Below are positions 21,845-35,776 of a stretch of 64,000 bases of DNA, piece after piece. The position numbers and the translations under genes are program-made. The number at the start of each line of letters is the position of its first letter. Positions within the stretch are counted from its first letter, which is position 1. The notes under the pieces are model-generated. The model was not told the origin of the DNA. It worked only from the letters and a program-made list of their open reading frames with translations, and did no database searches. This stretch comes from an uncultured Phycisphaerales bacterium (GTDB taxonomy: Bacteria; Planctomycetota; Phycisphaerae; Tepidisphaerales; Tepidisphaeraceae): NCBI GenBank assembly GCA_963758525.1, contig CAVWVQ010000005.1, forward strand, positions 256,001 to 320,000, written 5' to 3'.

Positions 21845-24363
21845 TCAGACGGCCGGCAAAGCGACGGGCGGATTCGGCACCACCGGCGTTTTTACAATCG
21901 ACGTGGCGTTGGTTGGATCGAAGATTCGATACGCGAGCAGCTTGATGCGGTCGTTGATCAGGAACCACACCAGGGCATAGCCCCATACAAACGCTGCCCA
22001 ACCCCAGCCGAGCGGCGTCATAAAGGCTCCGTATACCGCGATCAAGGTTGCAATGATTTGCGTTCCCACAACGGCGATCCAGAGAATCGTCGCGGGCCTG
22101 ATAGACCAGAACGGGCCGCGCGTGCGAGTCAGAAATATCGTCAGGTGGCCAGCCACGGACAGTTTCAAATACATCAAAGTTTGAATGTGTGGACGGTCGA
22201 GATGAAAGACGCGTTCACCGAGGTAAAAAAGCCCGAACGCGGACACGACGCCGATGACGCCCAGCACGGTCGAAACACCGAGCACCAGGCGCATGTTCCA
22301 TGCCTCAGGTTTGTCCTTGTAATGCACGTTGTCATACGCAATTGAAAGGATCGCTCCGTCATTGAGCGACGCCAGCATGACAATCATCACGGCGGTCAGC
22401 GGATAGAAGTTGAACACGAGGATTGCCAGCGTCATAAAGAACAGCACGCGCAGGGTTTCGGCGATGCGGTAAATGGCATAGCTGTTCATTCTCTGGAAGA
22501 TTCGACGGCTTTCCTTGATCGCGTCGATGATGACCGACAGACCGTCGGTAAGAAGGACGATGGATGCCGCGGCGCGGGCTGCGTCAGTTGCTCCGGAGAC
22601 GGCAATGCCGCAGTCCGCTTTTTTCAAAGCCGGTGCATCGTTCACGCCGTCGCCGGTCATTCCGACGATATGGCCGCGCTGCTGGAGAATGTCGACAATG
22701 TGGAACTTGTGCTCTGGAAATACCTGGGCGAAGCCGTCCGCCTTCTCGATGAGTTTCGTTTCCTCGGAAGTTTCCTGTTTTTGAGAATCACCAAGACCGC
22801 CGGCGTCAAGGATATTGGAACCGAGTCCCAGCTCTTTTGACATTTCCCGCGCGATGGCGAGAGAGTCGCCGGTCACCATCTTAATGCTCACCCCCATTTG
22901 CCGAGCGCTGGCGATGGTGGCTTTCGCCGACTCGCGCGGCGGGTCGGACAATGGCAGGATGCCCAGGAACCGCCACTTGCCTTTCTCATCTGCGCGGGCG
23001 ACGCCCAGTGATCGGAACCCACGAGCAGCGAAGTCGTTGACGGCTTTTTCAACGGCAGTCTTGATCTCGGCGGCGTTTGCCGACATTTGCAAAATCACCT
23101 GCGGGGCGCCCTTGGCCACGTCGAATTGCTTTCCGTCACTACCCTTTACTGTGGCTTGGGTGCGTTTGTGTACAGGGTCGAACGGTTGAAAATGGACGAC
23201 TTCAAAGCCTTTCAACGTCTTGTCGTCTTTCATTCCGCCCAAGACCGCCAGATCAATGGTGTCCTTATCCTCCGCGCGTGAAGCAAGAGCGCCGGCAAGG
23301 ATCACCTGGTCGGCGGGGATGTTATCGACGGTGAATGCCTCGCCCAGCGTGAGCTTGTTTTGAGTCAGCGTTCCCGTTTTATCCGAGCAAAGCACGTCCG
23401 CGCCGGCCAGTTCTTCAATCGCTACCAGGCGGCTGACAATCGCCTTCTTCTTGGCCAGCAGGCGAGCCCCGACGGCCATGGTGACGGACAACACCGTGGG
23501 CATCGCGACGGGAATGGCGGCCACGGTCAGCACCAGCGCGAACTGCAACGTGGTGAGAATTCGGTCCCCGCGATAGATCGCTACAGCGATAATGATCGCC
23601 ACCAAAGCTACGGCGAGGATGACCAGGTAATTGCCGATCTTCATGACCGCGCGCTGAAAGTGACTGACTGTCTGTACCCCTCCCACTAATTGAGCGGTCC
23701 TGCCGAAATACGTGTGCGTTCCGGTAGCGTAAACCAGGGCATCTATTTCACCGCGACGCATGATCGAGCCTGAAAACACTGCATCACCTGATTGATGCGT
23801 TGCCGGCAACGATTCTCCCGTCAGAGCGGACTGGTCGACGGCGATTTCGTCGCCCGCCAGCAAGCGTGCATCGGCGGGCACAATGTCGCCTAGTCGCAAT
23901 CGAATGACATCGCCCGGAACAAGCTCGCGCGCGGGGGCGTGATCCATTTCCCATCCCGCTTGACCTTTGCCGCAACGGCCAGTTCTTTTTTCAAGGCCGC
24001 GATCGCATTGCCCGCCTGCCGTTCTTCCCAGAATCCGACCACGCCGTTGGCGAGAAGCAAAAGGAGAATGATGAAAAAATCCGGCCAGTGGCGGACGATG
24101 CCCGACAAGGCCACGGCCGTTTCGATCATCCAAGGGATCGGACCCCAGAAATAAGACAGAAATTTCAGAAAGAGATTTGTCTTCTTTTCCGCGATTTCGT
24201 TGGGGCCGTATTGCGCCAGCCGCTTCTTGGCCTCAACGTCAGTGAGACCGTCCGGGGACGAACTCAACCGTTTTGCAACATCAGCAATTGGAAGGGTCTT
24301 TAGATCATCCTTGGCATCGGGATGCGGGTGAGCAGCCTTAGATTGAGTGGGGTCGGAAGACAT
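21845..24363 (-). CDS. Plasma-membrane proton-efflux P-type ATPase (type IIIA), frameshift ~23935
   Basis: YGPNEI, FWGPIPWMIE, DQSALTGES, IPVAMPTVLSVTMAVGA, CSDKTGTLT, PFDPV, KGAPQ, MTGDGVNDAPALK. Confidence 0.93.
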
Positions 24364-25780: not shown

Positions 25781-27073
25781 TCAGCCTCGCGCGGGAGTCG
25801 CGCCGTTGTCGCCCGAAAAGACGCAGCGCCCCGCGAGCGTCACGCGGCTCACTGTGGTAGCGGGGTGATTGGGATCGATTGGCAGCAGCGAGCGTATGGC
25901 CGCGTCGGCGGACATGTGCGGCGACAAGCCCGAGGACGCGACCTCGATGAAGGACATCGGAAAGCCTTGTTCGAGGCTGCCGAAGCTGGTCCCCATATCC
26001 AGCAGATCAGCTGGAGCGCGCGTCGATCGGTAGAGCGCTTCGGAGGCCGTGCCGCGATCGGATCTGCCGGCGTGAACGTCGATAAACCGGCGCATCTCTG
26101 CAAGCATCGAAACCGTCGGCGAAGCTCCAACGTCGGTGGCGATCGCGTAGGGCACGTTCCATCGCGCCACCTCATCCAGCGACATGATGCCCGATCCGAG
26201 CAGCGTGTTGGATGTGGGGCAGTGCGCGATCACCGAGCCGGAATCTCGTGCAATTCGCCACTCATCGTCTGTCATATGAATGCAGTGAGCCAGAATGCAG
26301 CGGTGATCCAGCAGGCCGTCTGCGCGGTAGATGTCTGTATAATTCGCGCAGCCCGGATATAGCACGTTTTCCACAAGCGTTTTTTCAGACGATTGCTCAT
26401 TCAGATGCGTCTGGGTTCGCAAGCCATATTCGCCGGCAAGCGCCGATGCGCGCGGCGCAGGGGGGAGTTCACCGCCACCGCGAAGCGATCGGTGACGATC
26501 AGGCGGCGGCCATACCGAGTTGCCAGACGTTTGATGTCCGCCTCGAGCATCGGCTCGTCGGCGCAGATCCTGCGGGCAATTCTGGTTCATCAGCACCAGA
26601 CCGACGCTCCAGGATTCGGGAAGCATCGAGAGTGCAACCTCCGTCGCCACCGCCGAGGGTGTCATGTAGGCCGATCCGCCAACAACGCCGTGCGAGAGCG
26701 TGTCGGCGAGAAATTCGCGGACGACTTGTTCGGCATACGCTTCCGTCGCGCATTTTGCCTCTGCCGGAAAGACGTTGCGGCGCAGGCCGGCGAGCAGCTT
26801 GCCCTCTTTCGCGTCATTGGCGATTCCCTCCGTGAAGCGACCGCGGATCGGGTGTTGCGGAATATGAATATGAATGTCCAGCAGCGGCGGAAGCATTACC
26901 CCATCGCTGAGGCGCGTCGGCTGATTCGACGAACGGTTGTGAAATTCTTCAAACGAGCCGGCGAACCGGAGCACCTGGCCGGCATCGGCAGCCAGAATCC
27001 CGTCGAAATGGAAGGTGACCGATCCGTCTGCCCGCGGAATCAGCAGCGGTCCGCGCACAATTTGTTCAAGCAC
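25781..27073 (-). CDS. guaD: Guanine deaminase (amidohydrolase)
   Basis: DIHIHIPQ, QTHLNE, LAHCIH, HCPTSN..LGSG, ATDVGA. Compensating indels at ~26563 and ~26455 hide the segment IVTDRFA. Confidence 0.8.
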   Translation of the reverse strand: MLEQIVRGPLLIPRADGSVTFHFDGILAADAGQVLRFAGSFEEFHNRSSNQPTRLSDGVMLPPLLDIHIHIPQHPIRGRFTEGIANDAKEGKLLAGLRRNVFPAEAKCATEAYAEQVVREFLADTLSHGVVGGSAYMTPSAVATEVALSMLPESWSVGLVLMNQNCPQDLRRRADARGGHQTSGNSVWPPPDRHRSLRGGGELPPAPRASALAGEYGLRTQTHLNEQSSEKTLVENVLYPGCANYTDIYRADGLLDHRCILAHCIHMTDDEWRIARDSGSVIAHCPTSNTLLGSGIMSLDEVARWNVPYAIATDVGASPTVSMLAEMRRFIDVHAGRSDRGTASEALYRSTRAPADLLDMGTSFGSLEQGFPMSFIEVASSGLSPHMSADAAIRSLLPIDPNHPATTVSRVTLAGRCVFSGDNGATPARG

Positions 27074-28415
27074 CGGCCGGCCCCCTTGCAGGTTTGATCA
27101 GGCGGCCGCGAAAATCACTGGCGACGGCGCCCTTAAGAGACACAGTCCTGCCCCGCACGATCGTCCGCTCGACCATTCCCCTGAAGGCCCGGCCGACGTA
27201 CGGGCTCAGTTGATGGCGATCCAGGAGCATCTCCTTCGTCAGCGTATAGTTTCCCGATAAATCAACCAGAGCTAAATCCGCATCAAAACCCTCCGCGATC
27301 TTTCCCTTCCCCGGCAGCAGGAAGCGCTTGGCGGTGGTGGTTGCGGCAAGCCTGGCGACTTGCTCGGGTGCAATGGCCGGCTGGCGCGTGAGGAGAGAGG
27401 CCAGCGTGGATTGCACGCCGGAGACACCTCCCCAGGCAGTAAAGAAGTTGCCCGATTTCATCGCGGGGGGCGCGGGAGAGTGATCCGATCCGATCAGGTC
27501 GATCGTTCCATCGACCACCTTTTCCCAGAGCTGGTCGCCGTGCGGCGCGGCGCGGATCGGCGGCGCGCACTTGGCGGCGGGGCCGATGCGAACGACGTCT
27601 TCGTGCGTCAACATGAAATAGTGCGGGCAGGTTTCGATCGAAACATCCGCCACGCGTCGCCCCATGGCCGCCATTTCCACGCAATAGCGGTTGCTTACAT
27701 GGACGATGTGCAGTTTGCATCCAGTTGTGCTAGCCAGGAGGATCGCGCGCCCAATGGCGTCGGCCTCGGCGACCGGCTCGCGGGTGAAGACCCAGTCCTT
27801 CGCCGACAGCTCGGGCAACAGGCTTTGCATCCATTTGGTTTTGCCGGCGACGAGCTCCTGGTTTTCGGCGTGAACCGCGACCGGCAATCCCAGCTTCGCC
27901 GCCAGTTGCATGCCACGCTCCAGTGTCCAATCGTCAGCCCGTTGGAAATCATCGATGCCGCTGTCACACATGAATGCCTTGAACCCGACGACGCCGCGTT
28001 CGGCAAGCTCCTCCAGTCGATCGAGATTGCCGGGTGTCAGACCGCCCCAGAGCGCGAAATCGGTGCGGCTCGAAGCTTCCGCCGCCTGACGCTTGAGATC
28101 AAAACTCGCGCCGTCGAGGGTCGGGGGAGAGCTGTTGAGGGGCATGTCGAAAAAGCACGTTCCGCCGCCCGCCGCCAGAGCCGCCGAGCCGGTGGCGAAC
28201 CCCTCCCAATCGGTTCGGCCTGGCTCATTAAAATGGACGTGCGGGTCGATCGCGCCCGGGAAAATATGGAGCCCTCGCGCGTCGATCTCTTCCCTTGCAG
28301 GCCCAGATGGATCACCGATCTCAATAAGTTTTCCGTCGATGATCCCCAGTGACAGCGGGCGATGAGCGTCGACGCCAACGATCAGACCATTACGAATGAG
28401 CAGGTCGAATTTCAT
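27066..28415 (-). CDS. allB: Allantoinase
   Basis: DPHVHFNEPGRTDWEGF.TG..A.AAGG, DMPLNSSPPT, GFKAFM, HAEN, ETCPHY, KCAPPIR, SDHSP. Confidence 0.92.
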   Translation of the reverse strand: MKFDLLIRNGLIVGVDAHRPLSLGIIDGKLIEIGDPSGPAREEIDARGLHIFPGAIDPHVHFNEPGRTDWEGFATGSAALAAGGGTCFFDMPLNSSPPTLDGASFDLKRQAAEASSRTDFALWGGLTPGNLDRLEELAERGVVGFKAFMCDSGIDDFQRADDWTLERGMQLAAKLGLPVAVHAENQELVAGKTKWMQSLLPELSAKDWVFTREPVAEADAIGRAILLASTTGCKLHIVHVSNRYCVEMAAMGRRVADVSIETCPHYFMLTHEDVVRIGPAAKCAPPIRAAPHGDQLWEKVVDGTIDLIGSDHSPAPPAMKSGNFFTAWGGVSGVQSTLASLLTRQPAIAPEQVARLAATTTAKRFLLPGKGKIAEGFDADLALVDLSGNYTLTKEMLLDRHQLSPYVGRAFRGMVERTIVRGRTVSLKGAVASDFRGRLIKPARGPAGA

Positions 28416-28433: not shown

Positions 28434-28787
28434 TCAGCTGCCTCGATACGTCGAATAGGCCCAGGGAGAAACCAGCAACGGCACATGATAGCCGGCCAAC
28501 GCATCGTCAATTCGAAAGAGCACAGGCACGACATCGAGAAATCTCTTCGCATCGCTCGAGCCGACCGATGCAAAATAATCGCCGACGTGAAACAGCAACC
28601 GGTACTGCCCCGCGGCAAAAAGGTCGCCACTGAGCATTGGTTCATCAGTGCGGCCATCCTGGTTGGTAATTCGATCTGAAATCGGAATCTTCTTTCCGCT
28701 CTCCAATCGGTGCAGTTCGATGCGCACCCCAGCGGCGGGTTTGCCATGTGTCGTGTCGAGCACGTGCGTCGTCAGTTTGCCGCTCAT
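28434..28787 (-). CDS. uraH: 5-hydroxyisourate hydrolase (transthyretin-like)
   Basis: LTTHVLDT..GKPA, TNQDGR, YHVPLL.SPW.YSTYRGS C-terminus. Confidence 0.96.
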   Translation of the reverse strand: MSGKLTTHVLDTTHGKPAAGVRIELHRLESGKKIPISDRITNQDGRTDEPMLSGDLFAAGQYRLLFHVGDYFASVGSSDAKRFLDVVPVLFRIDDALAGYHVPLLVSPWAYSTYRGS

Positions 28788-29641
28788 GATTCCTCCCGCT
28801 CGAGATGCCCGACGATTTTCCCCGATGGCTCATCCGTCGTCACATAAACATCATTGTTAAATTCCAGACCGAATGGTTTGAAATTGAACGGCACGCGATG
28901 CTTATTCGGCATGCGCAGGGTGATCCCCGTAATTGACGGTTCAACGGCGAGAGCGGCTTCTCCCATCGCAAACAAGGTTTGTTGAACCGCGTCACTCTTG
29001 TGCGTCGCGAACGTCTCCAGCATCGCGGTGCGAATCTTTGAAAACGCGCGGCTGAAATCAACATCGCGGCCGGCGAAGACCCACTCCGCGGAAACCTCCG
29101 TCGCCAGAATCCGGTCCGTGGTTTCCGGAAGTGTCGTGTATTGATCCCGCACAAAGCCGGTGAACGCCGAATCGGTTGTCTTAAGCACCAGCAGATCGCT
29201 CAGGCCGCCGTGAATTTCCACGCGATTCTCGTTCCGGTCGACGGCGACGAAGGCCTTGCGCAGCTCGCTCCCGGCGGATTCAAACGCGGTGGGATGTGAA
29301 ATCCCATCAACAGTGATCCGTTGCCACCGCGATTGATCGATATTGATTCGCGCCGCGCTGGCCTGCGGGTACGTCTCCACAAAGTGATCGGCGAGGCGGA
29401 GCGCGAACGATTCGGGGCTCTCCATCGAATGCTCTTTCGCCAGCAGGTAGACGGTGTTTTTGATCGAGTCGGTGGCGATGACGTTGGAATTGTCGCCGTG
29501 CGTGTAGGATCGCTCGAATGAGCCGAGCAAGATCACGCTCACGTTCATCTCCACCAGCTCGTGGCGGTCGGCGAGCCGGTGAACCCTCGTGACCCGGACG
29601 GATGACTTGCCATATTGTTGATGGAGTAATTTCGCGGGCAC
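28784..29641 (-). CDS. pucL: Factor-independent urate oxidase (uricase)
   Basis: YGK..V, ATDSIKNTVY, VLKTTDSAF.GF..D.YTTL.ET.DRI, S..VQQTL, MPNKH. Confidence 0.95.
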   Translation of the reverse strand: MPAKLLHQQYGKSSVRVTRVHRLADRHELVEMNVSVILLGSFERSYTHGDNSNVIATDSIKNTVYLLAKEHSMESPESFALRLADHFVETYPQASAARINIDQSRWQRITVDGISHPTAFESAGSELRKAFVAVDRNENRVEIHGGLSDLLVLKTTDSAFTGFVRDQYTTLPETTDRILATEVSAEWVFAGRDVDFSRAFSKIRTAMLETFATHKSDAVQQTLFAMGEAALAVEPSITGITLRMPNKHRVPFNFKPFGLEFNNDVYVTTDEPSGKIVGHLEREES

Positions 29642-29644
29642 GGT

Positions 29645-30157
29645 TCAATCCTCGCTGATCACGTCGGCCATGCGGAGCCTGGCGATCTGGTAAATCTCAT
29701 GGAGCGCCGCCGCGATTTCGGCATCGCGATCATTCCGCAATCGCGCCGGAAACGCCGCGAGAATCGCATCTTTACGGTTTTGCCTCGCGCAGATGACAAA
29801 CGGAAATCCAAAACGATCGCGATAGGCGGTGTTATACCGGTCAAACTCGGCGGCTTCAGCGGGAGTCAGCTCGGCCAATCCCGCCGCCGCCTGCTCCGTC
29901 GCGCTTTGCGGGGTTAACCGACCCTCGCGCGCCAGCCGCCCGACGAGATCCGGGTGAGCAGCGATCAATGCGAGCTGTTGCTCTTCCGTCGAATCTTCGA
30001 CGATCCTGCGCATCACCTCATGCAGATGCCCCAGCGATGAAAACGGGCGCGCAGACCATGCCCGTTCCGCAATCCACGGCGAGTGCTCGAAGAACGGACC
30101 ACATACCGTCACAAAGCTCTCGCGATCCGCAAGATTCAGCCGGCTGAGCGCCATCAT
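29645..30157 (-). CDS. uraD: OHCU decarboxylase
   Basis: FEHSPWIAE, AHPDL.G, S..EQA.AGL, N.AY..RFGFPFVIC, EI.QIA.LR. Confidence 0.95.
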   Translation of the reverse strand: MMALSRLNLADRESFVTVCGPFFEHSPWIAERAWSARPFSSLGHLHEVMRRIVEDSTEEQQLALIAAHPDLVGRLAREGRLTPQSATEQAAAGLAELTPAEAAEFDRYNTAYRDRFGFPFVICARQNRKDAILAAFPARLRNDRDAEIAAALHEIYQIARLRMADVISED

Positions 30158-31383
30158 GATTCGGTTACCATCTTTGCCAGAACATTTGCGGCCGCAGTAA
30201 TGTCTTCGATTCGGCTGAACTCCTCGGGGTTATGACTGATGCCATCTTTGCTCGCAACGAAGAGCATGGCCGTGGGAAGCAGCGGGGCGAGAATGGCGGC
30301 ATCGTGCAGGGCTCCGCTGATTGTCGTTGGAATTTCGCCACCGGCCGCACGCTGCAGCGCGGCGCAGACATCGGGGTTCATCTGGATCGGTGGCTGGTCC
30401 TCGGTGGTCATGAAGTTGAATTCCGTACCCCGGGGATTGAAGCAGACGAACTGCTCGAGTTCCTGATGAAACTGCGCCAACTTCTCCGAACTGGGACTGC
30501 GCACATCGACGGTAAACCGGACGGTGCCCGGGATGACGTTGACGGCGTTCGGCTGGCAGTCGATTTTCCCGACCGTTGCGACAATGTCCGGTCCAAGTTT
30601 TCGAGCGAGATCGTCGACTTCGCAGATCACCCTGGCGGCGAAGACGAGAGGATCGCGCCGGAAGCGCATCGGTGTGCTGCCGGCGTGGTTCGGAGCGCTT
30701 ATGAATTTCGCCTTATACTGCTTGCGGCCGGCAATGGCGGTGACCACCGCCAGGGGGACGCCGCCGGCCCACATCGCCGGTCCCTGCTCGGCATGAATTT
30801 CGATCAGGCCGTGATAGCGGGCGGGATCGAGACGATCGGCCGGCAGATTCTGTCGGCGCACGCCATCGGCGGCGCCAGCCTCGAAATATGTCTGCCCGTC
30901 GCGATTGCGGAACTGGTGGAAGAATGCGTCGTCACCGGTTCCCTCAAACGACACGCTGCGATTGACCCACAGACGACTGCCGATCATGCCGACGCCGAAT
31001 GTCGTTCCCTCCTCCTCGGCAAAGACGATCAATTCCAACGGCAGAACCTTGCCGGCGGCGCAAGCGGAGCGCAACACTTCCAGCGGACAGGTGACACCGA
31101 TCACCCCGTCGAATTTTCCGCCGGTCGGCACGCTATCGATGTGAGAGCCGCTCAGCCACACTTTCCGGTCCCAATCGATCGAGGCATGGCGGGCATGCAC
31201 ATTTCCCGCGGCGTCGATTCGCACTTTGCATTCGGCCGCCTCTGCCTGGGCAATCACATAATCGCGCGCCTGCCGCCAGGCTGGCGAGAAGGTGGGGCGG
31301 CTGCAGCCGACATCCGGTGTCGATTCATTGAAACCCGCAATGGTTTCAATGTCTTGCGAAATTCGCTCGGAGCTGATCGGCAT
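30154..31383 (-). CDS. allC: Allantoate amidohydrolase-type M20 Zn hydrolase
   Basis: GSHIDSVPTGGKFDG, EEEG..FG, EIHAEQGP, NHAGSTPM, NVIPG, SGALHDA, GISHNPEE; operon context. Confidence 0.85.
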   Translation of the reverse strand: MPISSERISQDIETIAGFNESTPDVGCSRPTFSPAWRQARDYVIAQAEAAECKVRIDAAGNVHARHASIDWDRKVWLSGSHIDSVPTGGKFDGVIGVTCPLEVLRSACAAGKVLPLELIVFAEEEGTTFGVGMIGSRLWVNRSVSFEGTGDDAFFHQFRNRDGQTYFEAGAADGVRRQNLPADRLDPARYHGLIEIHAEQGPAMWAGGVPLAVVTAIAGRKQYKAKFISAPNHAGSTPMRFRRDPLVFAARVICEVDDLARKLGPDIVATVGKIDCQPNAVNVIPGTVRFTVDVRSPSSEKLAQFHQELEQFVCFNPRGTEFNFMTTEDQPPIQMNPDVCAALQRAAGGEIPTTISGALHDAAILAPLLPTAMLFVASKDGISHNPEEFSRIEDITAAANVLAKMVTES

Positions 31384-31396
31384 GGCGCGGGTTGTC

Positions 31397-32379
31397 CTAC
31401 TTTCCAAAATCCCTTCTCCATGCAGTTCCCGTCTTCTCCATTTCGCTCTCGGCGGCGGTCCTTCGCAGACGGTGGAGCATCGGCATCCCAAGGTTCCATT
31501 CCTGCATCCAGTCTCGCGCGAAAACGCCGCTCTCCGTTTCCGTGAGGATTCGGCGGATTTCCGCTTCGTTAATCACGCGGGGGCCGCGCGTGCGAACGGC
31601 AAATTCGCAGGTTCGGCTGCAGCCCTTGGTCAGGTATTCTTCGATGCCTTTTTCGTCCATCACGTCGATGACGCTGCGCAGGCTGCGAATGGCTTTGGCA
31701 TAGGCGAAGCTCGGGGGATAGCCATTTTCAACCATCACGTTGAAGCAGGCGCGCATGAGGTGAATGGCGCCGCCGTACAGAATCTGCTCTTCGAAATTGT
31801 CCCCCTCGGTTTCGTGCTGAAAGCTCATTTCGACAACGCCGGCGCGGGTGCTGCCGACCGCTTTGGAGATCGCCAGAACGATGTCTCTGGCATCGCCGGT
31901 GGCATCCTGATCGACGCTCACGCATCCGTAGACCCCTTCCCCTTTCTGGTATTTTGCACGCACAAATGCGCCGGGAGCGTTGGGAACGTACAGGACGACA
32001 TTGACATCCTTTGGCGGTTGGACCTGGCCATAAAGCACGCTGAAGCCATGACAGAAGCAGAGGGTCTGGCCGTGCGCAGGTGAGGGGCGATGTCACGCTT
32101 GTACACGGCCGGCTGCACCGGATCGGCCAGTTCGATCAGCAGCACGTCCGCCTTGAGCGTCGCGTCGGCGACGCTCATCACATCAAAGCCGTCAGCGGCG
32201 GCGTGATCATGACTGGGGGATTCGCTCGCCGGCCGCGTGCCGATGATGACCCTGCATCCGCTGTCCCGGCAATTCGCCGCCTGGGCCTTTCCCTGGATTC
32301 CATACCCGATGACGGCGAGGGTCTTGCCCTTCAGAATTGCTAAATCGACGTCGGCATCTCTGTAGATCTTTTCCATCAT
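31397..32379 (-). CDS. Divergent ketol-acid reductoisomerase (IlvC)-like NAD(P)-dependent enzyme, frameshift ~32072
   Basis: IYRDADVDL..LKGKTLAVIGYGIQG...RDSG, FCHGF, ETEGDNFEEQ..YGG, NGYPP..AY, ESGVFARDW; several KARI catalytic residues substituted (see findings). Confidence 0.85.
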
Positions 32380-32405: not shown

Positions 32406-33146
32406 TCAAAGTGAAATGTCGCGGTTCACGTTTTTGTAATAGATATACCGCGACGCGGTGGGGCCCGTCGCGTAGAAGGATTGAGGACAATACGGCCCCA
32501 TCCAGATGAAGTCATCCGCCTCGACCTCCAGCCAGCGATCGTCCAGGAAGTAGAGGCCTTTGCCCTGAAGAAAATAGAGACCGTGCTCCATCACGTGGGT
32601 TTCGACAATCGGCAGACCAAAACCGGGATCGAACGTGAAAATGTTGACCGCCAGATCGTAAGCCAGGTCATCGGGGATCAGCGTCTGCAACATCGAATGC
32701 GGATTGTCGGCCCACACTTCCTTGCTGATCTGCGACTCCTGCCCGAATACCGCCTTGAACAGCCCGACGCCGGGCGCCGATTCGTATCGCTTGCGAAGAA
32801 GCAGGAGGCTCAGAGCTTCGCCAGCGGTTATTTCGATGCCGCTTCCCGGTGGGATCAGTCCAAAGCTGCCGGGGGCAAGACCGCGGTCGGGCATCCGACC
32901 CGTGCCGCTGAGGACATAGAAAAACGTCTCGGTATCCGGGTCGGCGGCGAACGAGCCGCCTTTCCCCGCCGGCAGCTCGAACAGATATTGAACGAACGCG
33001 GCGCCCAGGGGGGGCGAGGCCAGCACTTTCACCGCCGCGTCCGGCCAGCCTGGCAGACGGGACACGGGAAAGCCCTCCAGCGGCATGAGCGCATATCTCG
33101 AGCAGACTCGCGTTCGGCAATGAACCAGATCCTGCACCGCTCGCAT
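32406..33146 (-). CDS. allE: (S)-ureidoglycine aminohydrolase (bicupin)
   Basis: GAAFVQY, ETHVMEHGLY.LQG.G.Y, DFIWM..YCPQ, RYIYYKNVNRD. Confidence 0.93.
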   Translation of the reverse strand: MRAVQDLVHCRTRVCSRYALMPLEGFPVSRLPGWPDAAVKVLASPPLGAAFVQYLFELPAGKGGSFAADPDTETFFYVLSGTGRMPDRGLAPGSFGLIPPGSGIEITAGEALSLLLLRKRYESAPGVGLFKAVFGQESQISKEVWADNPHSMLQTLIPDDLAYDLAVNIFTFDPGFGLPIVETHVMEHGLYFLQGKGLYFLDDRWLEVEADDFIWMGPYCPQSFYATGPTASRYIYYKNVNRDISL

Positions 33147-33161
33147 CGACTCCCTTTCTCG

Positions 33162-34873
33162 TCAGACAAATAAATCAACAAACTGAAACGCGTCGACATC
33201 GACCAATCCGCGATCCGTCAGTTTTAACGCCGGGATGACCTCAAGTGTCATAAAGCTCATGGCCATGAACGGATCCGCCAGCGGCGACCCCAGGTCGCGG
33301 GCGGCGTTGACCACGGCGGCATATCCCGCCGCGACTTCGGCGATCGGCCGGTCGCTCATCAGGCCGGCGATCGGCAGCGGCAGTATCGCAGCCACGTGCT
33401 CTCCGACCGCCACGGCCAATCCTCCTCCGACGTCTGCCACCGCCCGGGCGGCGCATTGCATTGACACGTCATCCGCGCCGATGACCACGAGATTGTGGTG
33501 ATCGTGCGCAAAACTTCCGGCGATAGCGCCGCGCCGCAGGCCAAATCCCTGGACGAATCCAGCCGAATTGTTGCCGGTGGCCCGGTGGCGCTCGATGACA
33601 ATCATCTTCAGCACATCCGCCGCGACGTCCGCGACAGCGTTGCCGGCAACGATTTTGGCGCGCATGACGCGCTGTTCGGTGAGCAATTGATCGGGAAGCG
33701 AACCGATCACCCGGATCCGCTCACCGGTTGCTGGCACGCTCCAGCGCACGCGTTCCCAGTCGACGCGACAACGGCCCCTGACGTGCGGACCTGGAACCGC
33801 CGGCCGCAATTGAGCGACGAGCTCCCCGGATTTCGCGACCAGCGCGCCTCGGCTGAACACCAGACGCGCCTGCACATTCTGCAAGTCATCGAAGACGAAC
33901 AGATCCGCGGCGCGGCCAGGCGCGACTGCGCCAGATGGCGAAGACCAAACAGTTCAGCCGTATTCAGCGTTCCCATTCGAATCGCATCGAGCGGATCGAT
34001 TCCGAAAGCGATCGCGCGGCGAACCATCTCGTCGACTGAGCCGACGGCGAGCAACTCATTGGGCGTGCGATCGTCGGTGCAGAAGCAGATGCGGCGGCTG
34101 TTGGATCGAGTCACCACCGGCAAGAGCGCCTCGAGATTGCGCGCGTTGGTCGCTTCGCGGATCATCAGGTAAAGCCCCCGGGCCAGCTTCTCGCGCGCTT
34201 CCTCGGCGCCCACCGATTCGTGATCGCTGCCGATGCCCGCGGCGATGTAGGCATTCAGCTGGTGGCCGGTCAGTCCGGGTCCATGCCCGTCGATCGGGCG
34301 GCCCTGCATGGCGGCGAGCTTTTCCCATACGTGAGCATCTCCGGCCAGGAGGCCTGGGACGTTCATCATTTCGGCCAAACCGTGTACGACCCCGCCGGTT
34401 CGAAAATCCCGGAGATGACTTGCGGTAATCTCTCCGCCGCTGCTGGCCAGTTCGGTGGCGGGCACGCAACTGGGCGCCATCAGCGTCACTCTCAGCGGCA
34501 ATTCAGCCGACGCCTCCGCCATGAATTGGACCCCGGCGGATCCCAGCACATTGGCGATCTCGTGCGGATCGGCAACGACGGCAGTGACGCCGCGGGGAAC
34601 CAGCGCCGCGGCAAATTGCGAGGGCACGCAGAGGCTGCTTTCGATATGCACATGAGCGTCGATCAAACCCGGCGCAACAAAGGAACCGCACAAGTCGATT
34701 TGGTGAACTCCCCGGTAGCCCTTCCCGACGCCCGCGATCACCCCATCGGCGATCGCAATGTCTGCCGATTCAATCTCGCCGTTGAAAACATTGATAATTC
34801 GTCCGCCAGTGAGGACCATGTCGGCGGGCACGTGGCCCAGAGCTGCAGCGATGTAGCGGGGGGGGTTAACCAT
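33162..34873 (-). CDS. ade: Adenine deaminase, frameshift ~33932
   Basis: DAHVHIESS, DPHEIANV.G, PSCVPAT, LAEMMN, DGH.P, SDHE, CTDDR; C-domain ERH..TG, AHDHHN, LPIAGLMS, PFM.MSF..L.VIP.LKLTD.GL. Confidence 0.95.
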
Positions 34874-34945
34874 CAAAATTACGTCGCCAGTTGGCTCAAG
34901 AGACAAGGATATAGCAGAGTTGCACGTGAGAGAAATGAGACGATC

Positions 34946-35776
34946 ATGAATATTGCTGTTTTGGGTTTGGGAATCATCGGTAGTTCGTGGGCGAGAAACC
35001 TGATCGCCGATGGGCATGCAGTACGGGGCTGGAACCGGACGCCAAAGGACTTTCCCCACTACCATGCGTCCATCCAGGAGGCCGCGGATCAGGCGGAGAT
35101 CATCTTCATCGTCGTGGCTGACCCGCCGGCGGTTCAGTCCGTCCTCAATCAGATCCAGTCCAAACTCGGCCCAGGCCAACTGGTCATCCAATCCAGCACC
35201 ATCTCCGCCCATTGGACGCATCTGTTTGCCGAGCAGGTGCAGCGATCGGGCGCGTCGTTTTTGGAGGCGCCGTTTACGGGGAGCAAAGACGCGGCGGCAC
35301 AGCGCAAGACGGTTTTTTACCTGGGCGGCTCCCCGGAAGTTGTCGATCGGGCACGCCCGGTTCTCCAACCCCTGTCGACCGCCATTCTGCACATCGGGCC
35401 ACTCGGGTCCGCGTCCTCGCTGAAGCTGGCCATGAACCTCAACGTGGCGGGGGTTGCCCAAACCCTGTGCGAAAGCATCATGTTGTGTCGCAAGGCCGGG
35501 ATTTCAGACGACATTTTTTTCAACGCACTGGCTCGCAATGTCGCGCACTCGGGTTTGGCAGACCTGAAGAAACCGAAGTTGCTCCAGCACGATTACAGTC
35601 CGCAGTTTTCGCTGAAGCACATGGACAAGGATCTGCGGCTGGCGCTGGAAACCGCCGCCGATCTCGGCCTGAGCCTTGAAAAAACCGCCCAACTGAAGAA
35701 CCTCTACGCGCAGGGAATGGCTGCGGGTTGGGGGGACGATGATTTCATCGGACTGGTGCGACTTCTGGAAAAATGA
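34946..35776 (+). CDS. NAD(P)-dependent beta-hydroxyacid dehydrogenase (GlxR/glyoxylate reductase-like)
   Basis: GLGIIG, WNRT, FLEAPFTGSK, LKLAMN, PQFSLKHMDKDLRLA. Confidence 0.88.
   Translation: MNIAVLGLGIIGSSWARNLIADGHAVRGWNRTPKDFPHYHASIQEAADQAEIIFIVVADPPAVQSVLNQIQSKLGPGQLVIQSSTISAHWTHLFAEQVQRSGASFLEAPFTGSKDAAAQRKTVFYLGGSPEVVDRARPVLQPLSTAILHIGPLGSASSLKLAMNLNVAGVAQTLCESIMLCRKAGISDDIFFNALARNVAHSGLADLKKPKLLQHDYSPQFSLKHMDKDLRLALETAADLGLSLEKTAQLKNLYAQGMAAGWGDDDFIGLVRLLEK

Follow-up and report, generated by a model that had tools for sequence, protein, structure and literature searches.

A remodelled ketol-acid reductoisomerase family at the ureidoglycolate step of bacterial purine breakdown

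The window analysed here, a stretch of 64,000 nucleotides from an uncultured Phycisphaerales bacterium, carries a purine-degradation operon in which the ureidoglycolate step is probably taken by gene X, a remodelled paralogue of class I ketol-acid reductoisomerase (KARI, IlvC). Gene X belongs to a real, conserved and misannotated enzyme family, set apart by its fold, by a fixed set of residue changes, by its gene context and by its exclusion of ureidoglycolate amidohydrolase (UAH). As to the reaction, sequence and context give about an even chance that X is an NAD(P)H-dependent reductase acting on C2 of (S)-ureidoglycolate, its product being N-carbamoylglycine (hydantoate), from which a ureido-cleaving neighbour would release glycine. 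Three fates of ureidoglycolate have been named, through an amidohydrolase, a lyase and a dehydrogenase (PMC3793230; PMC3527362; these and all articles below are cited from the available parts of their text).

The window operon and the break in gene X

Gene X (31397..32379, minus strand, about 326 aa) stands in a tightly packed run that reads ade-allE-X-M20-uraD-uox-uraH-allB-guaD on the minus strand, with 26 bp between allE and X and about 14 bp between X and the M20 gene. The first-pass annotation, which had placed an IlvC-fold gene tightly between allE and the M20 gene of a purine operon, is borne out in both gene order and gaps. On the same strand, allE (32406..33146) encodes an (S)-ureidoglycine aminohydrolase of the UGLYAH type (TIGR03214, 255.5 bits against a cut-off of 200), and the M20 gene (30154..31383) a carbamoylase-family amidohydrolase (TIGR01879, 303.8 bits against 204) of an X-specific clade. 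The remaining genes, likewise on the minus strand, are the OHCU decarboxylase gene uraD (29645..30157, TIGR03164), the uricase gene pucL/uox (28784..29641, TIGR03383), the HIU hydrolase gene uraH (28434..28787, TIGR02962) and the allantoinase gene allB (27066..28415, TIGR03178), each above its cut-off, together with guaD for guanine deaminase (25781..27073), matched in two stretches, and ade for adenine deaminase (33162..34897), frameshifted near 33932, both below cut-off. A reading of AllE as a UGLYAH2 allantoicase was rejected, as NF040771 scores 169 against a cut-off of 350 and the active-site columns are those found in AllE of operons that carry AAH and UAH. No promoter-like site was seen in the window operon, and terminator-like sites fell below chance. 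Divergent from ade lies a gene of the beta-hydroxyacid dehydrogenase family (34922-35776, plus strand), which is not conserved in the 80 related loci.

The reading frame of X is split, with KARI_N at 32074-32379 and the rest of KARI_N together with KARI_C at 31397-32071. A DNA alignment with five relatives located the indel, earlier suspected near ~32072, as one base missing at 32071/32072. This base is present in a near-identical contig (three other letters in 252; depth 3.3; a single contig), the frame is intact in 80 of 80 related loci, and ade is frameshifted too, so that the break is probably an assembly error; a pseudogene was rejected. An mgtA-like ATPase gene near 21845-24363 also seems to be split over two frames, and together with the split ade and the two stretches of guaD this suggests uncorrected assembly indels.

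A KARI fold with a rebuilt active site

Profile searches match X to KARI families alone and not to the Ldh_2/sulfolactate-dehydrogenase-like fold, its separate halves scoring 214.9 and 105.2 against 336 for PRK05479 and 196.2 and 78.8 against 226 for TIGR00465. A fold search with X returned class I KARIs, the ESM Atlas gave KARI clusters only, and databases name the protein 'ketol-acid reductoisomerase'; in the monomer model the mean pLDDT is 69, with C-terminal stretches below 50 and a swapped C-domain of low confidence. The motifs GYGIQG, HGF, VPNAPG, EGDNFEEQ and AYAKAIRS are present as the first-pass annotation had read them, that is, with GYGxQG, HGF and GDNFEEQ kept and VPNAPG and AYAKAIRS changed. 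A canonical ilvC with APKGPG and AYFECVHE was found on another contig of the same genome (G000:C3:4188812); X is 39.7% identical to it and 89.6% identical to its nearest database relative, the break being read as an unknown residue. In a tree with 21 KARIs, all 29 sampled X members form one clade (FastTree support 1.0), and a second KARI is encoded in 50 of 50 carriers, sampled from the 80 near genomes described below; the idea of a remodelled paralogue is thereby upheld, and X is not the sole ilvC of these genomes.

Residues are given in S. aureus numbering, carried over through the own-genome IlvC with the offset read from the motifs. All 29 X members keep D190, E194, S251, T253 and P132 and carry the substitutions K130N, E226K, E230S, H229R, K232R, G193E, L191N, C199Y and N252R; L233 has become Ser or Thr, and S249 is mostly Arg. 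Among the 21 KARIs, E226 and E230 are invariably Glu, and K130, presumably an important active-site residue of the enzyme, is kept in 20. In class I KARI the equivalents of D190 and E194 hold Mg(I), and D190, E226 and E230 hold Mg(II) (PMC5940873); L233, L237 and S249 form the wall of a hydrophobic pocket and S251 takes part in ligand binding (PMC12202844), the roles of the Mg(I) ligands and of the carboxylate-binding S251 being described also in PMC13753588. The residue pattern of X thus implies that site I and the carboxylate clamp survive, that site II is lost and that the pocket has turned polar and basic. Compared with IlvC (EC 1.1.1.86; PDB 7q03, 5w3k), X has the same Rossmann domain followed by KARI_C at roughly 40% identity, with GxGxQG, H107 and the five kept residues, whereas the nine invariant substitutions, Ser/Thr at 233, the separate clade, the purine context and the ever-present second KARI distinguish it.

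The cofactor loop has the R-x4-S-x-S form of the NADPH type, by the rule in PMC5940873, in 56 of 80 near members; in distant members the Arg is mostly absent and many loops end in Asp. The loop residues suggest that near members use NADPH and distant members NADH. That KARI folds have been repurposed before, as was noted in the first-pass annotation, is borne out by BurG and ApnO, in which the scaffold has been reused for other chemistry (PMC13753588). ApnO shares with KARI only the site I residues, and BurG keeps the equivalent of E230, unlike X (PMC13753588). By E-value X is much closer to true KARIs (1e-78 to 1e-84) than to BurG (1e-46). PanG belongs to distinct domain families, to which X has no match.

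Distribution, exclusion of known enzymes and partners

Our near set comprises the 80 closest loci, from Planctomycetota, Verrucomicrobiota and Spirochaetota, with own-genome loci removed from the counts. In this set allE lies upstream of X in 75 loci and an M20 gene downstream in 73, the misses being mostly contig ends (true exceptions are L015, L041, L014 and L072), and with purine context recurring across phyla the proposed tie to purine genes holds. Replacement of AAH by X was rejected, as AllE, which needs ureidoglycine, stands beside X in those 75 loci. A scan of 41 of 64 database parts for the EGDNFEEQ motif, which reaches carriers of this word at an identity of at least about 57%, added members at 57-69% identity and puts the family at an estimated 190 or so species-representative genome records; two of the 118 new pattern loci among the matches listed (L283, L291) were chance matches. 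The distant members, by the names in the sequence records, are from Chloroflexota, Actinomycetota, Clostridia, Synergistaceae, Desulfovibrio, Rhodothermales, Gammaproteobacteria and Pirellulaceae, so that X spans some ten bacterial groups, with Rubripirellula obstinata and Wukongibacter baidiensis as cultured carriers. The carrier genomes are mostly incomplete assemblies and related to one another, and counts over them are not independent; X occurred in 0 of 300 other genomes of a phylum sample, which therefore gave no co-occurrence test. A solitary X, with no purine gene in the surrounding 10 kb or so, was seen in a Ventosimonas assembly (L387, G444:C24), and one planctomycete assembly has two X-M20 clusters (G327:C2, G327:C70).

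A search of 99 carriers, 51 near and 48 distant, turned up no UAH orthologue (0/99), the best matches being 35% and 39% identical to a query that true UAHs match at 54-77%. As a control, 80 loci were collected with an allE query; the 74 without X have an AAH-type M20 (QxR, Gly) in 49 cases, UAH (Tyr) in 40 and both in 29, and none of 50 control allE genomes has X, UAH being in the locus in 40 of these. The placement of X at the ureidoglycolate step, in mutual exclusion with the known enzymes and above all with UAH, is in this way sustained. The two serve the same step, operons carrying either AAH, AllE and UAH or X with a distinct cleaver; UAH (EC 3.5.1.116; PDB 4pxb) is an M20 hydrolase, whereas X has an NAD(P)-binding redox fold that needs a partner to release nitrogen. 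In Verrucomicrobiota, Planctomycetota, Chloroflexota and Bacteroidota, AAH-allE-UAH operons include bacterial orthologues of UAH that match the Arabidopsis enzyme at E 1e-133 (L169-L237, 40 of 74 loci). Genes for allA, allD, allFGH and UAH were found in 0 of 47 distant loci and in 0 of 80 metagenome loci from the transcarbamylase search described below, and HpxZ in 0 of 51 carrier genomes. An AllG gene unlinked to X is present in 7 of the 50 near carriers and in 18 of the 48 distant ones; weak matches to the AllA family (E 1e-7 to 1e-13) occur in 7 of 50 carriers and urease in 11 of 51. The own genome (90.9% complete) showed neither AllA nor AllG, and its Ldh_2 gene, flanked by genes for a 2-hydroxyacid dehydrogenase and an SDR, scores well short of the AllD cut-off. 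In five genomes searched, urea carboxylase (one fragmented copy) and glcD gave nothing over cut-off, and gcvP was present in all five, which is common and not discriminating; the allantoicase search matched no control and is therefore uninformative.

The M20 proteins linked to X form a clade of their own, RxQ being found in 71 of 71 and Leu in 68 of 71, and across the partner M20s the UAH Tyr is replaced by Leu, Phe, Val or Ser, whereas control AAHs have QxR and Gly at the Tyr423 position in 49 of 49 and control UAHs Tyr in 40 of 40. These determinants are those of PMC13751858, in whose available text neither 'reductoisomerase' nor 'oxalurate' occurs. The X-linked proteins are 29-37% identical to AAH or UAH (30-36% to UAH) and hold the His/Asn/Arg/His substrate-binding set in 71, 71, 71 and 69 of 71 cases; Leu is found also in 9 of 9 M20s of pyrimidine context, with whose clade the second M20 of the own genome, encoded beside an mmsA-like gene, groups. 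By motif the window M20 is neither AAH nor UAH. It had been taken for AllC as the single M20, and it does stand as a candidate for the allantoate step, but the AAH hallmarks (QxR, Gly) are absent and it would be an atypical enzyme. We infer that it accepts allantoate as well as what X produces, a bifunctionality that fits the hybrid motif and the fact that 23 of 51 carriers have just one M20 of this family; an AAH-type gene occurs in only 2 of 51 near carriers. The AllE of verrucomicrobial X loci nests among AllE of operons without X, which indicates that X and its M20 travel together.

The distant set consists of 47 genomes with loci of 3-70 kb, in which the allantoate step is represented by AAH (3/47), by a UGTCase-like pseudo-ATCase (18/47) or by allantoicase (4/47; no allE in the three such loci inspected), the first two routes running on through AllE. 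The substrate of X would be ureidoglycolate, as the common product of these three upstream routes. A neighbour that cleaves ureido or N-acyl groups is found in 41 of the 47, namely AOTCase-like in 22, ArgE/DapE-like in 24 and, in 10, an M20 whose residue at the Tyr site is Phe, Val or Ser (one, from G417, scored by hand); the six loci without a cleaver include some that are short or at contig ends, and 15 have both ArgE-like and AOTCase-like genes, an apparent redundancy that speaks against the glycine route. Genes are named here in their order along the locus. The Rubripirellula locus (L380) has AAH, allE, uox, allB, uraH, X and an ArgE-like gene, three loci (L374, L385, L390) have allantoinase, racemase, allantoicase, M20 and X, and the Wukongibacter locus (L371) has allE, M20, X, allantoinase, a transporter and a true AllC, the M20 beside X thus being a second one. 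In L375, L382 and L383 the run is UGTCase-like, carbamate kinase, hydantoinase, allE, X, AOTCase-like, fixCX, etfBA and an oxidase. Clusters in which pseudo-ATCase, AOTCase-like, carbamate kinase, ETF, FixCX and glycine/sarcosine-oxidase-like flavoprotein genes surround X were seen in Chloroflexota (L375, L382, L383, L388, L399) and Spirochaetota (L381). The arrangement recalls the UGTCase route of Rubrobacter xylanophilus, for which the available text of PMC4016543 describes no enzymatic step after ureidoglycolate; with pseudo-ATCase (STRT/HPTQ) and carbamate kinase upstream of X in 18 of 47, X and the AOTCase-like protein would extend it.

The oxidase is similar to oxidases of sarcosine, dimethylglycine and glycine; it was present in 15 of 47 distant genomes, each time together with the transcarbamylase. 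When the transcarbamylase itself served as the query, the 80 metagenome loci retrieved included X in 38 and the oxidase in 38, and gcvT-like genes follow the module in eight, all with X; GcvT, GcvH, GcvPA and SHMT copies in transcarbamylase loci pass their cut-offs, and in one actinobacterial genome the genes around X include gcvT-SHMT, a glycerate kinase gene, lipA and lpd. The AOTCase-like family is a candidate glycine/sarcosine carbamoyltransferase. A GcvT-SHMT fusion of 882 aa lies in the same cluster as X at L373:15198-17843, and a small thioredoxin-like gene separates X from the transcarbamylase in 21 of 80 metagenome loci (L424-L503; also L261, L276, L284). Of 42 metagenome loci that combine allE with the transcarbamylase, 12 have no X, and in several of these the two genes are immediate neighbours. 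In the clusters with gcvT, a gene resembling cytosine/creatinine deaminase stands before it, and at other loci the transcarbamylase has creatininase-, ADI- and arginase-like genes beside it. From these neighbours, the oxidase and glycine-cleavage genes may serve creatinine/sarcosine breakdown, which would leave the transcarbamylase a (methyl)glycine enzyme yet may weaken its link to X. Genes like ADI or amidinotransferase lie near the AOTCase-like gene without X at L431:2810-3661, L466:6838-7719 and L496:7840-8769, directly upstream in L431 and L496, possibly as part of a route that reaches the same intermediate by deimination of guanidinoacetate or creatine.

The fate of ureidoglycolate

In the proposed reduction, the Mg(I) site (D190/E194) and S251 would hold the carboxylate and the C2 hydroxyl, the hydroxyl would leave to give an N-carbamoyl imine, and hydride would be delivered to C2, the carbon that KARI already reduces. 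A hydroxamate inhibitor bound to KARI loses its hydroxyl with NADPH (PMC13753588); our search found no precedent for a ureidoglycolate-type reduction in the KARI fold. In the window, the M20 would carry out both ureido hydrolyses, first on allantoate and later on N-carbamoylglycine, with a yield of three NH3 and glycine, urease not being needed and glyoxylate not being set free. For anaerobes, the corresponding proposal is that ATP is made from N-carbamoylglycine by way of an AOTCase-like transcarbamylase and carbamate kinase.

The cleaver in 41 of 47 genomes, including 22 of the 25 that have an allantoate step of their own, indicates that the product of X keeps its ureido group, and the partners, from enzyme families whose substrates are N-carbamoyl or N-acyl amino acids and glycine, favour reduction over oxidation. 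The first-pass annotation had proposed a ureidoglycolate dehydrogenase or a glyoxylate/oxalurate reductase; oxidation of ureidoglycolate is disfavoured by these partners, together with the zero counts for allA/D/FGH (0/47) and HpxZ (0/51); urease in only 11 of 51 carriers is counted for glycine as well. By a rough estimate from redox values, reduction and oxidation of ureidoglycolate are both favourable, so thermodynamics do not decide. Against glycine count the 12 of 42 loci without X, the AllG genes in some carriers, the 6 of 47 without a cleaver and the bifunctionality demanded of the window M20.

The oxidative alternative, rather unlikely in our estimate, makes X a non-homologous analogue of AllD that forms oxalurate with NAD(P)+, which a neighbour would cleave to oxamate. 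It draws equally on the substrate evidence and the exclusion of UAH, its chemistry is simpler, ApnO provides a precedent for C2 hydroxy-acid oxidation in a KARI fold (PMC13753588), hydroxyoxamate inhibitors are bound in solved KARIs according to PDB entry titles, and oxamate can be a dead end (PMC11326118), to which the AllG of 18 of 48 distant carriers may be added. AllD (EC 1.1.1.154) would share with X nicotinamide chemistry at C2 of the same substrate, but it is a member of the sulfolactate-dehydrogenase-like family with a preference for NAD+ and supplies oxamate transcarbamylase (PMC3527362), whereas X has the KARI fold and is unlinked to allFGH; the E. coli oxamate transcarbamylase is in turn unrelated to the OTCase fold (PMC11326118). 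Oxalurate would moreover require three unrelated amino-acid-acting families each to be recruited to an acylurea, with allFGH and HpxZ lacking from the loci and genomes counted above, and it leaves the glycine-oxidase-like and glycine-cleavage neighbours unexplained.

It is improbable that the partner cleaves ureidoglycolate first, or that urea leaves, and that X reduces the remaining iminoacetate to glycine or glyoxylate to glycolate, a reductive urea-lyase being included here. Such a sequence is suggested by loci in which allE adjoins the transcarbamylase without X, KARI-fold enzymes do reduce small 2-oxo acids, as ApnO does hydroxypyruvate (PMC13753588), and the iminoacetate form accounts for the glycine genes equally. 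Yet it predicts X together with a true UAH, a combination met neither in the 50 controls nor in the 99 carriers, the partner M20s are without the Tyr that recognises ureidoglycolate, and for the 40 of 51 genomes that lack urease, nitrogen released as urea would be lost. That X is an ordinary acetohydroxy-acid reductoisomerase or ketopantoate reductase, in the operon by chance, is highly improbable despite its full KARI fold, its identity to IlvC and its database name, since both Mg(II) glutamates and K130 are replaced in every member sampled and a second KARI and purine neighbours recur across carriers and phyla.

Reduction to N-carbamoylglycine can be widened to a fourth fate of ureidoglycolate, to which we give somewhat less than an even chance: a KARI-derived reductase would lead through N-carbamoylglycine to glycine, aerobes, the bacterium of the window among them, recovering all four nitrogens by a urease-free route of three genes with a bifunctional M20, and anaerobes gaining, by the first glycine carbamoyltransferase, a second carbamoyl phosphate and ATP, with electrons passing to ETF/FixCX. 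In the literature searched, largely its non-subscription part, no link between KARI and purines or between N-carbamoylglycine and purine breakdown was found.

The X family marks a further branch at ureidoglycolate that has been hidden under the label 'ketol-acid reductoisomerase', most likely one that opens from purines to glycine. Should the glycine route be true, it would mean a new reaction and substrates for three orphan partner families, it would explain nitrogen recovery without urease, and it would show the KARI scaffold turned to an imine-type reduction, by which purine catabolism would be joined directly to glycine metabolism.
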